DNA from: an uncultured Solirubrobacterales bacterium
GTDB taxonomy: Bacteria > Actinomycetota > Thermoleophilia > Solirubrobacterales > 70-9
Direction of reading: 5' to 3'
Length of the DNA stretch: 64,000 nucleotides
NCBI GenBank assembly: GCA_963791335.1
Contig: CAWBRN010000003.1
Location: 487,841 to 551,840, forward strand
Shown: one piece after another, positions 30,069-39,415 of the stretch
Position numbering within the stretch: position 1 is the first letter of the stretch
Layout: every line of letters begins with the position of its first letter
Notes under the pieces: model-generated
Database searches by the model: none
What the model was told of the DNA's origin: nothing
Seen by the model: the letters and a program-made list of their open reading frames with translations, nothing else
Made by a program: the position numbers and the translations under genes

Positions 30069-30120
30069 CGGGCCCGACTGGTTCGAACTGGTGACCTTCG
30101 GTTCGTACAGCGTCCGCTCA
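30069..30120 (-). repeat. pseudo-tRNA: degenerate copy of the 3' ~52 nt of tRNA-Arg(ACG); att-like scar
   Basis: About 80% identical by hand alignment to 39342-39394, including runs gcccgactgg, ttcgaac and tgaccttcggtt. It has no 5' acceptor strand and its T-stem no longer pairs. Same orientation as the intact tRNA. Confidence 0.6.
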
Positions 30121-30205
30121 CTCCCTTGAAACTCGACTTGTAGATGAAGGGGCCAGCAGTTCGAATCGCTCGTGGTTAGTCCTGTTCGACTAGGTTGGCC
30201 GCAGC

Positions 30206-30691
30206 ATGATCAACCCAGCCACCCTCTTGTTCTACGACGTCGTGGTCGCCGTCCACGTCATGTGCATCGTGATCGCCTTCGGAGTCACGTTCGCCTATCC
30301 AGTCATCCTGCCCTGGTCCACAAGGGCCCATCCGGAGGCAATGGCAACGATTCACGTAATACAGGAACGCATCGGCCGATTCGTGATCATGCCGTTTGGG
30401 ACGCTGGCTCTATTGACCGGCGTCTATCTGGCATCCGATCGCGACCTGTTTGGGGAGACGTGGGTGGTCATCCCGCTGGTCATTCTCGTCTTCCTGCTCG
30501 GCCTCGGCGGATTGTTCTTCGCGCCGCGCGAGAAGGCTCTGGCAACGATTGCTCAGCGCGATCTTGCCGCTGATGGAGCGCTCAGTGACGAGTACCACGC
30601 GAACGCGAGGATCCTCGGCCTCGTCGGCGCGCTCTCGAGCGTGCTCGTCCTCATCGCGATCTTCAGCATGGTCGCAAAGCCGTTTTCGTAG
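30206..30691 (+). CDS. DUF2269-like four-helix membrane protein
   Basis: Intact 161-aa hydrophobic ORF (MINPATLLFYDVVVAVHVMCIVIAFGVTFAYP..). Confidence 0.7.
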   Translation: MINPATLLFYDVVVAVHVMCIVIAFGVTFAYPVILPWSTRAHPEAMATIHVIQERIGRFVIMPFGTLALLTGVYLASDRDLFGETWVVIPLVILVFLLGLGGLFFAPREKALATIAQRDLAADGALSDEYHANARILGLVGALSSVLVLIAIFSMVAKPFS

Positions 30692-30923
30692 ACCGAACAT
30701 CAATTCTGCTCGGCGAAGGCACTGAACCTCGAGGCCCTGAGCCGGTCACGCTCACCCGAGCCGTTACTGCCGTCCAGAAACCAAAGGAACCTCAAAGGTT
30801 CACGGGCAAACGGGCGATGGGGCGACGCGGAGGACCGTTCTGATTCTCCGCCACGGCCGGGGGCGCGATGCGCCGCCCGGCCAAACTTTCGCGTAGGTGG
30901 CCGTGTGGTTCCAGGCAGACAGG

Positions 30924-30960
30924 GTCCAGCTCCGGACCCCGTTCCGGTCCGAAGCTGGAC
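30924..30960. other. strong stem-loop in a roughly 480-bp non-coding gap
   Basis: gtccagct(30924-30931) pairs with agctggac(30953-30960). An inner helix cggac/gtccg gives 13 bp in total. No convincing ORF lies between 30692 and 31170. Confidence 0.4.
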
Positions 30961-31170
30961 TACAGAGCAGGCGTATCTCTCGGGGGATGGAAGTACGCCC
31001 GCTCCCGTTAACGATTCGACACAATCCTGGCCTGACCTTCCCTGACTGCATCAAGCGCCAGTCGCCGGCCATCTTGGTTTGGCGCAGTGCTCACGCGCTG
31101 GTTGCCGTCGGGTTTCTCGCGTTCAATCGGGTATGTGTGGTGGTGCGCGATCACTGGACGCCATGGCCGG

Positions 31171-31416
31171 TTACTCCGAATCGCTGTCGGCGCCCTCAGC
31201 ACCGAAGGAATACTCGTAGCCGCCAATCACGGTGATTGTCCGCTGGGTCCGGTGGGAGATCGCATCGGTGATGCAGTACCCCTATTCGAACTCGTCCTTC
31301 CGCCCCAGGCAGCAAGGTTGGCAGTCCCCGTACTCGGGGCCATTGCCGCCGCGGGACTGGGCCTTCTGGCTCTCCGAACTCGTTATGTCGTTATCGATCC
31401 CCCGGACCGATTTACT
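31171..31416 (-). pseudogene. small Cys-containing ORF interrupted by an in-frame TAG, with no canonical start
   Basis: High-GC3 frame ..SSESQKAQSRGGNGPEYGDCQPCCLGRKDEFE-TAG(31284-31282)-GYCITDAISHRTQRTITVIGGYEYSFGAEGADSDSE-TAA(31173-31171). It begins within or just after the dodecin stop. Confidence 0.4.
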
Positions 31417-37568: not shown

Positions 37569-37679
37569 AGAGCGGCGTCTCACCCGGGTGATTTGACGCC
37601 GGGTGCCCTGGCCATCGGCTCCCCCGATCGCAACAGTTGAGCGGCTATCAAGGACGAATCAACTTCATCGGAGGACTCA

Positions 37680-39188
37680 ATGACCAAGAAATCGAAGAGC
37701 AGAACGCTGATGGCGACACTGGCGGTGCTGACGGCGGCGCTGCTTGCGACCGCAGGAACGGCGGCCGCGGATCCGATCGCTTCCAGCGGTCCGGCCCCCT
37801 CGCTACCGGCATTTCAGGGAAGCCCGGCGACCGCCCACAAGATCGCCGACCCGACGATCGCGCCTCAGAACCCGTTCATGGCGGACAACCCGCTCAGCAA
37901 CATCCACAACGACACGTGGATGACCGACGCCTACCAACTCAAGGGACCGCTCGGCGACTCGCCGGTAGCGACTTCGGCTGCCAAGCCGCTCCGTATTTGC
38001 GGGAGCCTTGCGTTCGACAGCGCCGGCGACATCGTTTCCGTCTGCCCCTCGCTCTTCGCGGGACCTCAGATCCGGGTCATGGATCCCGACACGCTGGAGA
38101 CCCTCGGCTCTCTCGACCTGCCCGATGCCGCAAACCCGCCGGGGACGAAGGCGTACCAGAACTTCACCGGTGGTGGCTATTTCTTCCTCGATCACAAGGA
38201 TCAGCTGTGGGTGCCCACCAAGACCGACCACATTCAGGTCTACGGCCTGGGAACGGACGGGGTCACGCCGACGCTGAAGCAGGACTACGACCTGACTTCG
38301 GTTCTCGACCAGTCAACCGAGCGGATCACCTCGGCCCTTCCCGACTTCAACGGACTGATCTGGTTCGTCTCGAAGGCCAACGGCAAGATCGGGACGCTGA
38401 ACACCAAGACCGGCGCTCTGAAGACGATCACGACCGACGAGGAGATCGAGAACTCCTTCGCGGTCGGCAAGAACGGCGTGTACATCGCCTCCGACAAGCG
38501 CATGTACCGGTTCGAGGCGAGCAAGAGCGGCGTCCCGAAGGTCGTCTGGCAGAAGACCTACGAGAACTCCGGGATCATCAAGCCGAGCCAGCTCAACGCG
38601 GGGACCGGGACGACGCCGACGATCATGGACAACGGCTACGTCGCGATAACCGACAACGCAGACCCGATGAACGTCGTCGTCTACCGAACCGGGAAGAAGC
38701 TCCACGGCCAGAAGCGCACGGTGTGCGAGGTCCCGGTGTTCAAGGCGGGTGGAAGCGCGACCGAGAACTCGCTGATGACCGCGGGTCGCTCGCTGATCGT
38801 CGAGAACAACTACGGCTATCAGGATCCCCTGGGACCGAATGCCGGGGCCGTGACCGAGGCGGGCTTCGCCCGGGTCGACGTCAAGAAGAACGGCAAGGGC
38901 TGCACCAAGGAGTGGACCAACAAGGAAGTGTCCGCACCGACGGTCGTTCCCAAGCTGTCGACAAAGACCGGTCTGATCTACACCTACTCGCGGCCCGCAG
39001 ACCCGAGCGGCTCCGAGGGTTACTACTGGACCGCAATCGACTGGCGAAACGGCAAGACGGCCTTCAGCCAGTACGCCGGCTCAGGTCTGAACTACAACAA
39101 CAACTACGCCGGGCTGGCACTCGGCTCCGACGGCACTGCCTACCTCGGAGTGATCGGCGGCATGCTCGCCCTTCGCGACGGCAGCTAA
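37680..39188 (+). CDS. hypothetical secreted protein, probably beta-propeller-like
   Basis: Intact 502 aa. GGAGGA RBS. Signal MTKKSKSRTLMATLAVLTAALLATAGTAAA. Repetitive beta-rich sequence. No family recognised. Confidence 0.7.
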   Translation: MTKKSKSRTLMATLAVLTAALLATAGTAAADPIASSGPAPSLPAFQGSPATAHKIADPTIAPQNPFMADNPLSNIHNDTWMTDAYQLKGPLGDSPVATSAAKPLRICGSLAFDSAGDIVSVCPSLFAGPQIRVMDPDTLETLGSLDLPDAANPPGTKAYQNFTGGGYFFLDHKDQLWVPTKTDHIQVYGLGTDGVTPTLKQDYDLTSVLDQSTERITSALPDFNGLIWFVSKANGKIGTLNTKTGALKTITTDEEIENSFAVGKNGVYIASDKRMYRFEASKSGVPKVVWQKTYENSGIIKPSQLNAGTGTTPTIMDNGYVAITDNADPMNVVVYRTGKKLHGQKRTVCEVPVFKAGGSATENSLMTAGRSLIVENNYGYQDPLGPNAGAVTEAGFARVDVKKNGKGCTKEWTNKEVSAPTVVPKLSTKTGLIYTYSRPADPSGSEGYYWTAIDWRNGKTAFSQYAGSGLNYNNNYAGLALGSDGTAYLGVIGGMLALRDGS

Positions 39189-39209
39189 GGCTCGAGCAGC
39201 GGAAGCAAT

Positions 39210-39246
39210 CGCACACGGCTCGGGCGTGGAGCTTGGGCCGTGTGCG
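39210..39246 (+). terminator. possible intrinsic terminator hairpin after the 37680..39188 gene
   Basis: cgcacacggc (39210-39219) pairs perfectly with gccgtgtgcg (39237-39246) across a 17-nt loop, followed by aagtttcgc. The U-tract is weak. Confidence 0.35.
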
Positions 39247-39341
39247 AAGTTTCGCTTGCGATTCGCGCCAGCCCGTCCAGATGATCGGCGGCGCTTTGCC
39301 CAATCACAATGTCCATGCGGCATTGCAGCCGATGAGAAGAG

Positions 39342-39415
39342 CGCGCCCGACTGGATTCGAACCAGTGACCTTCGGTTTCGTAGACCGACGCTCTATCCAG
39401 CTGAGCTACGGGCGC
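39342..39415 (-). tRNA. tRNA-Arg (anticodon ACG)
   Basis: Reverse complement GCGCCCGTAGCTCAGCTGGATAGAGCGTCGGTCTACGAAACCGAAGGTCACTGGTTCGAATCCAGTCGGGCGCG folds as a cloverleaf. Anticodon loop is CTACGAA. CCA is not encoded. Confidence 0.9.

Follow-up and report, generated by a model that had tools for sequence, protein, structure and literature searches.

Actinobacterial elements and temperate phages such as pSAM2, SLP1 and mycobacteriophage L5 integrate at the 3' ends of tRNA genes by means of a tyrosine integrase, and the identity between their attachment (att) sites extends from the anticodon loop as far as the tRNA gene's 3' end or beyond. The present analysis concerns a 64,000-nucleotide (nt) stretch of DNA from an uncultured soil bacterium of the Solirubrobacterales (assembly GCA_963791335.1, contig CAWBRN010000003.1, positions 487,841 to 551,840), in the following called the window, in which a tRNA-Arg(ACG) gene is followed downstream by two partial copies of itself, site 2 and site 3. 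The DNA between the tRNA gene and site 2 is referred to as Segment I, that between site 2 and site 3 as Segment II. In Islander, an intact tRNA gene together with a displaced 3' fragment downstream in the same orientation is the signature of a genomic island (Hudson, Lau & Williams; PMC4383910), crossover sub-sites are divided into classes such as A and T/J (Williams 2002, as cited in PMC4383910), and among 3919 islands 125 arrays of at least two and 4 of at least three were counted (PMC4383910). Tandem accretion followed by decay to att-flanked, integrase-less cis-mobilizable elements (CIMEs) is a described route (PMC5704250). The DNA downstream of the tRNA-Arg(ACG) gene is probably a worn-down composite integration hot spot, that is, a decayed tandem tRNA island of CIME-like type. 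As such it would be a clean example of a tRNA integration hot spot after its mobile machinery has eroded, in a little-studied, mostly uncultured actinobacterial order; this type of genomic island is itself familiar, and the comparison identifies tRNA-Arg(ACG) as a recurrent target in Solirubrobacterales.

How firmly can the two copies be assigned to the tRNA gene? ARAGORN and Rfam both recover the intact minus-strand tRNA-Arg(ACG) that a first-pass annotation, made from the sequence alone, had described, and at the gathering threshold Rfam finds only three tRNAs in the window. Site 2 is an exact copy of the 19-mer ATCCAGTCGGGCGCGCTCT, which begins with the last two nt of the T-loop and comprises the tRNA's final 15 nt and 4 nt of flank. 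Exact matches to it stand at two places in the window, 39338-39356 and 32227-32245, each time on the minus strand, and dinucleotide-preserving shuffles contain on average 0.10 matches at up to 3 mismatches; a weak 19-mer-like match with 3 mismatches, at 1317-1335, was put down to chance. With the tRNA plus 40 nt of its downstream flank as BLAST query against the window, a gapped alignment joins 32190-32248 to tRNA positions 57-116 (45/60 identities, E 8e-7), and the 26 of 29 matching positions reported before are recovered as 19 exact ones and 7 among the 10 that follow. Upstream of the 19-mer, the 60 nt compared resemble tRNA positions 1-59 no more than shuffles do (their score is reached by 614 of 2000), so that the 5' boundary of site 2 in the T-loop is abrupt, as had been stated. 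Site 3 aligned in the same search with 49/60 identities (82%, E 2e-8) over some 58 nt, in good agreement with the roughly 80%-identical copy first placed near 30069-30120. The formal alignment of the three sites thus gives similarity far above chance in one orientation: site 2 and site 3 lie on the minus strand downstream of the tRNA and both extend to the discriminator, with tRNA positions 1-17 missing from site 3 and everything 5' of the T-loop missing from site 2. Rfam detects no tRNA in 29800-32500 at E <= 1, and hence none at site 3. In addition, a marginal piece 560 nt upstream of site 3 is identical to tRNA positions 5-43 at 28 of 39 positions (E 0.04-0.08) and includes an exact 13-mer, TCGGTCTACGAAA, spanning the anticodon stem-loop.

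Relatives point to repeated use of the same target. The closest matches of the neighboring extracytoplasmic function (ECF) sigma factor and of cydA are found in Solirubrobacterales genomes and metagenome-assembled genomes (MAGs). Scanning metagenomes with the 3' part of the tRNA (47 nt) yielded 47 contigs, here given L numbers, which were oriented on the tRNA and compared at the DNA and protein level, and protein matches added further relatives (L130/L131, L133, L134 and nine loci with an identical dodecin). In all but two of the 47 contigs the DNA downstream of the tRNA is unrelated to that of the window. In L130/L131 the sigma factor is 89% identical in amino acids (aa) and the flank 85-88% in nt, and in L130/L107, the closest relative without the island, identity spans the sigma gene and the tRNA and ends directly after ...GGGCGCGCT; past the tRNA lies different DNA with three AGGTCAGAGC repeats and small open reading frames (ORFs). 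The synteny comparison proposed by the first-pass annotation therefore shows similarity lost exactly at the tRNA's 3' end, and yields no empty site. The three AGGTCAGAGC repeats stand in tandem at L130 9760-9820, about 75 nt past tRNA-Arg, and are possibly the arm of a different element. More distant sigma-factor relatives (61-72% aa identity) keep the module of sigma factor and major facilitator superfamily (MFS) gene, and have no tRNA-Arg downstream, so that they are of no use as an empty-site test.

Several of these contigs carry the enzyme that is expected of such a site. In L101 a 383-aa tyrosine integrase ends 48 nt ahead of a 47-nt tRNA fragment. In L144 an integrase 85% identical to it, preceded by a GpA-type terminase, ends 60 nt ahead of a 51-nt fragment. 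Tyrosine integrases also adjoin the tRNA in L117 and L127, and in L109/L082 the C-terminal ~160 aa of one (HxxR...Y) start directly after the intact tRNA-Arg(ACG); this stump (L109 7733-8245 in stored orientation, identical to L082 215-727) is cut off at the att site. The L101 enzyme is 28-30% identical to integrases of Arthrobacter, Mycobacterium, Gordonia and Streptococcus phages. Other contigs resemble the window more closely in having fragments and no detected integrase: L100 has a 49-nt fragment 3.4 kb from the tRNA, with a secreted hydrolase-like gene and a P450 gene between them; L115 a 45-nt fragment at 0.6 kb, with none detected beside it; L120 a fragment at 2.6 kb, beyond genes for a membrane protein and for a secreted glycosidase-like protein of 551 aa; and L139 a 21-nt T-loop-type and a 45-nt anticodon-type fragment 4 kb apart, neither with an integrase match, in an available stretch that includes no intact tRNA. 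Judged from these comparisons, tRNA-Arg(ACG) is a real and recurrent integration hot spot in Solirubrobacterales, and the fragment classes together with the integrases beside the tRNA in relatives support the footprint of site-specific insertions that had been proposed for the window. Nor did any of the three observations turn up that had been named as speaking against it, namely a 19-mer that is a common repeat unrelated to tRNA, relatives of identical gene order without a boundary at these sites, or full-length tandem tRNA-Arg paralogs in relatives.

Moreover, the tRNA and site 2 share more than tRNA sequence. Each is followed by a flank motif of ~40 nt (copies a and b) with a box of the CCGCATGGA type; the box of copy a, GCAATGCCGCATGGACATTG, occurs once in the window. 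When the two downstream flanks are set in register, their score is reached by 36 of 2000 shuffles, and over 46 nt copy b and the tRNA flank of L093/L120 are 89% identical. No such motif follows site 3. Elsewhere the motif lies 3' of the integrase-linked tRNA fragments of L101 and L144, of the tRNA and a second fragment in L120, of the tRNA in L125 and L133, and of the 21-nt fragment in L139. L101, L144, L120 and L125 possess a second CCGCATGGA-type box ~85 nt beyond the first, and a pair of ACCATCGCGC-type repeats then comes in L144 and L120, the pair being present in both flanks of L100 too, there without the boxes. In the window the second box is decayed and the first is well conserved after the tRNA. 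Since the motif accompanies integrase-linked sites and stays conserved where the tRNA differs (L144), we infer that it may represent the P' arm of one family of integrative elements; apart from it, no homology was found between the window and the integrase-bearing loci L101 and L144. As a candidate att arm, it could help to delimit islands in Solirubrobacterales MAGs.

No machinery for mobility was detected in the window itself. In 29800-32450 and 34850-39500, six-frame Pfam searches turned up just the domains already known and nothing of an integrase, recombinase or Xis type at E <= 0.1, tblastn with the integrase of the clade (L101) reached no better than E 1.4 over the whole window, and an ad hoc integrase hidden Markov model had no match at E <= 0.1 in the six frames of all 64 kb, which upholds the original statement that integrase, excisionase and transfer genes are absent. 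Pfam likewise finds no phage structural, packaging or lysis domain in 27.5-39.5 kb (PHROGs were not searched), Segment II has no match in a plasmid collection, and viral contigs scanned with the tRNA 3'-end patterns yielded one unrelated tRNA and otherwise nothing, and thus no phage attP.

At least two rounds of tyrosine-integrase insertion probably took place in the 3' half of this tRNA gene, each of which would have regenerated the tRNA and displaced the old 3' end downstream. Site 3, of the anticodon-arm class, would be the older scar and, being without the motif, the oldest or terminal junction, and site 2, of the T-loop class, would be the younger or better-kept one. The tRNA with motif a would form an attL-type end and site 2 with motif b, if the motif is read as a P' arm, the internal hybrid junction of a tandem array. 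The genes for recombination, excision and transfer, which are absent now, would have been deleted later, and because none of them remain the element is immobile on its own. The DNA between the scars is now a rearranged mosaic of cydAB, a broken STAND/LuxR regulator, a secreted protein, dodecin, DUF2269 and a glycosidase-like stump.

Among described systems, the locus shares with Islander islands the intact tRNA and the downstream, same-orientation fragments that reach the tRNA 3' end. The starts of site 3 in the anticodon-arm region and of site 2 in the T-loop/T-stem match the classes A and T/J, and the distances of ~7.1 kb from tRNA to site 2 and ~2.1 kb from site 2 to site 3 fall into the accepted range of 2-200 kb. 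It agrees with the Islander definition in everything except that there is no tyrosine integrase in or next to either segment, for which reason the integrase filter of Islander would reject both; the content is, furthermore, rearranged and one fragment abuts a truncated gene. With the CIMEs of the ICESt1 family of Streptococcus thermophilus it has in common att-type repeats at the 3' end of the target gene, the lack of integration and transfer genes, a tandem arrangement with a putative internal hybrid site, and an arm-like motif shared with integrase-bearing relatives. Such end repeats bracket Segment I, whereas the far end of Segment II, site 3, is decayed and has no motif. The differences are the other host phylum, the tRNA gene as target, the partly decayed att sites and the fact that no autonomous parent element was identified. 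Elements of the pSAM2/SLP1/L5 type resemble it in the tyrosine integrase found in relatives and in att identity from the anticodon region to the tRNA 3' end; they differ in that int, xis, rep and tra genes are all absent from the window and that the integrase-bearing relatives are seen only as metagenome contigs, one of them with a GpA-type terminase (L144).

Table 1. Features at and around the tRNA-Arg(ACG) gene, in window coordinates
Feature	Position	Strand	Evidence or remark
Intact tRNA-Arg(ACG)	39341-39415	minus	ARAGORN; Rfam tRNA, 71 bits at 39342-39415
Flank motif copy a, directly 3' of tRNA	39300-39340	minus	Box GCAATGCCGCATGGACATTG at 39307-39326
502-aa protein	37680-39188	plus	N-terminus signal-peptide-like by eye; 94.8% aa identical in L133
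STAND NTPase/MalT-TPR/LuxR regulator	35291-37568	plus	At least 3 reading frames; Pfam
81-aa ORF	35027-35272	minus	No Pfam match behind the earlier label 'small membrane protein'
cydA, cytochrome bd oxidase subunit I	33443-34861	minus	Pfam Cyt_bd_oxida_I, E 9.6e-126
cydB, cytochrome bd oxidase subunit II	32436-33446	minus	Pfam Cyt_bd_oxida_II, E 6e-63
Near-identical tract	29903-32447		L133 6784-9330; encloses site 2, Segment II, site 3 and stump
Site 2, exact 19-nt copy of tRNA 3' end	32227-32245	minus	T-loop/T-stem-class att scar
Flank motif copy b, 3' of site 2	32190-32226	minus	In register with copy a
69-aa ORF	31931-32140	minus	No Pfam match at E <= 1
Dodecin, 70 aa	31412-31624	minus	Pfam Dodecin, E 1.6e-21
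Possible decayed tRNA-Arg 5' half, ending in anticodon loop	30684-30719	minus	Marginal
DUF2269 membrane protein	30206-30691	plus	Pfam DUF2269, E 3.3e-9
Site 3, decayed copy of tRNA positions 18-76	30067-30124	minus	Anticodon-arm-class att scar
'geneX' stump, final 45 codons and stop of secreted glycosidase-like gene	29914-30051	minus	
PKD/CARDB-domain secreted protein, left of scars	27538-29814	minus	Pfam; collinear in L133

What do the two segments contain today? Pfam bears out the earlier calls of cydA, cydB, DUF2269, dodecin and a STAND/MalT/LuxR regulator in several frames (Table 1). The regulator domains, nSTAND/AAA (weak), TPR_MalT and GerE, lie on separate ORFs, and its counterpart in L133 is a version of 618 aa plus 145 aa; it either is a pseudogene or has been affected by indel errors. 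The region of the 81-aa ORF is rich in indels relative to L133. Two labels found no confirmation, 'beta-propeller-like' for the 502-aa protein and 'Rv0909-like' for the 69-aa protein, as neither has a Pfam match at E <= 1; the 69-aa protein is identical only in L133 and one further contig, which is probably the source itself. One of the gene fragments noted before, that beside site 3, turns out to be the 45-codon stump of a glycosidase-like gene. It begins 18 nt past site 3, and the rest of the gene is missing. L120 has the gene intact, as a 551-aa ORF (3782-5437) with a tRNA-Arg fragment right behind it, and the stump agrees with the 3' end of this ORF at 92% of nt and 91% of aa. An identical dodecin protein is encoded on 19 or more public contigs, whose gene neighborhoods differ widely. 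The DNA common to dodecin loci comprises the gene plus 60-160 nt only (285-380 nt, 91-97% nt identity), and as it barely exceeds the gene, dodecin was rejected as marker of a mobile cassette; so short a shared stretch with an identical protein rather fits a strongly conserved small gene in shuffled neighborhoods.

Segment II, by comparison with relatives, is clearly a rearranged mosaic with permuted blocks and a truncated gene at site 3. In L140 the order of the DUF2269 block (30695->30174; 94% identical in nt) and the dodecin block (31692->31413) is reversed, and the two lie directly side by side. Homology of the DUF2269 block with L140 starts exactly at CTACGAA, which matches the tRNA anticodon loop, within the marginal 30684-30719 piece. 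L133 is collinear with the window from 39485 to 24115, both scars included, and because it shares the arrangement, the arrangement predates the split of the two lineages. The two genomes are 87.8% identical over 12,395 nt of aligned DNA, except for a tract of 2,542 nt, from the last cydB codons to 11 nt beyond the stop codon of the stump, in which they are 99.88% identical (3 substitutions and 6 one-base indels). The simplest reading is that the tract is one recent import by homologous recombination; it could also be a mobilized non-autonomous unit or a mixed-strain consensus of the long-read assembly. This 2.5-kb tract is the only part of the locus that might repay study of recombination or mobilization between species. 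On the minus strand, GGCCG(G)GCCGCGAGA forms a direct repeat of 13-15 nt (29900-29914 and 32152-32166), with one copy at the left end of the tract and the other a short way downstream of motif b, perhaps by chance.

A respiratory oxidase on a mobile element was the most eye-catching claim made for this DNA, and it is not established. Homologs of cydA occur by the hundreds at 76-95% identity in Solirubrobacterales MAGs, so that there is no sign of its being foreign, and if cydAB had traveled as cargo, it came from a donor of the same order. L134 shares only the cydAB pair with the window (34852-32429; 84% nt identity, cydA 89% aa). There cydAB has other neighbors and no tRNA, but in both places a cyclase-AAA16-TPR gene is found at a distance of 5 kb. 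Such a zinc-ribbon/adenylate-guanylate cyclase/AAA_16/TPR STAND gene (23632-27339, minus strand, in the window; L134 16870-20112; L140 15071-18298) is located within ~5-6 kb of cydAB or of DUF2269-dodecin in three genomes, which may reflect old linkage or a multi-copy family. The composition of the region differs from its surroundings, as a check called for by the first-pass annotation confirmed, if modestly: GC content at third codon positions (GC3) averages 0.75-0.82 for genes at 21.4-39.3 kb versus 0.86-0.90 elsewhere (Mann-Whitney p 2e-5), and tetranucleotide distance is highest at 27.5-35 kb. In functional terms, the locus is nothing other than ordinary accessory chromosome beside a tRNA.

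Several points weigh against a decayed composite integration array. Insertion is deduced and not seen, because there is no empty site among the relatives compared, L130/L107 carrying other DNA and the collinear L133 the same scars. The ends of the near-identical tract (29903 and 32447) differ from the scars. The cyclase STAND gene 5 kb from a lineage-typical cydAB hints at old chromosomal linkage rather than cargo, the flank motif could be a conserved native flank that was copied into attP, and the possible tRNA 5'-half piece at 30684-30719 is at odds with a simple accretion of 3' fragments. Furthermore, the frameshifts may be errors of the long-read assembly, and the variable region has no defined left end. 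If the scars were decayed tandem duplicates of the tRNA-Arg gene instead of att sites, the reach of site 3 back to tRNA position 18 would find an explanation, and the 5'-half-like piece and site 3 might together make up a single tRNA copy that the DUF2269 block interrupts. Such duplication is highly improbable, however, given that site 2 has no similarity upstream of the T-loop, that Rfam sees nothing tRNA-like between 29800 and 32500, that integrases adjoin equivalent fragments in relatives, and that no compared relative has a second full-length tRNA-Arg at this place: L133 has one tRNA and the same fragments, and other contigs one tRNA-Arg, often beside tRNA-Ser, plus 3' fragments only.

Did Segment I and Segment II instead arrive as two discrete elements, with cydAB, the regulator and the secreted protein as cargo and only the integrase module lost? 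This was the original proposal, and the att scars on which it was built have held up; the segments as simple inserts and a mobile cydAB have not. The tRNA with motif a and site 2 with motif b do bracket Segment I like attL and an internal att site, the Segment I genes are lower in GC3 than the backbone, and the differing surroundings of cydAB in L134 mean that its position is derived in one of the two lineages. Yet the window has no integrase stump, P-arm homology or transfer gene, cydA is not marked as foreign among its many homologs, Segment II has permuted blocks and a truncated gene outside site 3, and the pattern of divergence from L133 ignores both scars, so that we consider two discrete inserted elements rather unlikely. 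Still less probable, in our estimate, are non-autonomous CIME-like units that can be mobilized to this day, with functional att sites and an integrase supplied from another part of the genome or by an incoming element, although mobilization of CIMEs by accretion is documented in streptococci (PMC5704250). Units of this kind would account for a site 2 that is exact over 19 nt next to a decayed site 3, for the good conservation of the first motif box after the tRNA, for the near identity of the 2.5-kb tract in otherwise divergent genomes, and for the integrase-less, fragment-flanked islets of L100 and L120 and the L139 fragments without an integrase match. On the other hand, the tract does not end at att scars and could stem from a single homologous-recombination import or from an assembly artefact, decay has affected the second motif box, and no integrase is encoded within 64 kb. 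It is correspondingly unlikely that there is a whole family of small integrase-less Solirubrobacterales islets still moved in trans by integrases of the clade, each bounded by a tRNA-Arg(ACG) 3' fragment and a conserved arm with CCGCATGGA boxes, and that the tract records a recent horizontal move of one of them. A decayed composite array remains the probable reading of the scars.

The DNA on the other side of the tRNA gene varies as well. The gap between tRNA-Ser(GCT) and tRNA-Arg(ACG) measures ~60-100 nt in at least 8 related contigs and 9.35 kb in the window, where tRNA-Ser lies at 48766-48856, and intermediate relatives hold 1-4 kb of different genes between the two. Because of this differing spacing, the DNA upstream of tRNA-Arg (39416-48765) is likewise a variable zone; no tRNA-Ser 3' fragments were found in these 9.35 kb. 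The zone includes a cytochrome P450 gene (~42925-44194, plus strand) that occupies at least 2 frames in the window, possibly owing to long-read indel errors, and is an intact 409-aa ORF in L130/L131; the latter also carry a 3.7-kb block with ATP-binding cassette (ABC) transporter and SfLAP genes that is absent from the window. Farther to the left, positions 18963-20373 are 87% identical to L099 1322-2741, at a secreted alpha/beta-hydrolase gene (18967-20442) whose homolog in L099 sits 1.2 kb after tRNA-Arg. As neither neighboring gene is shared, this match was rejected as a sign that the island reaches to 20.4 kb, and it is best described as a single-gene mosaic piece.

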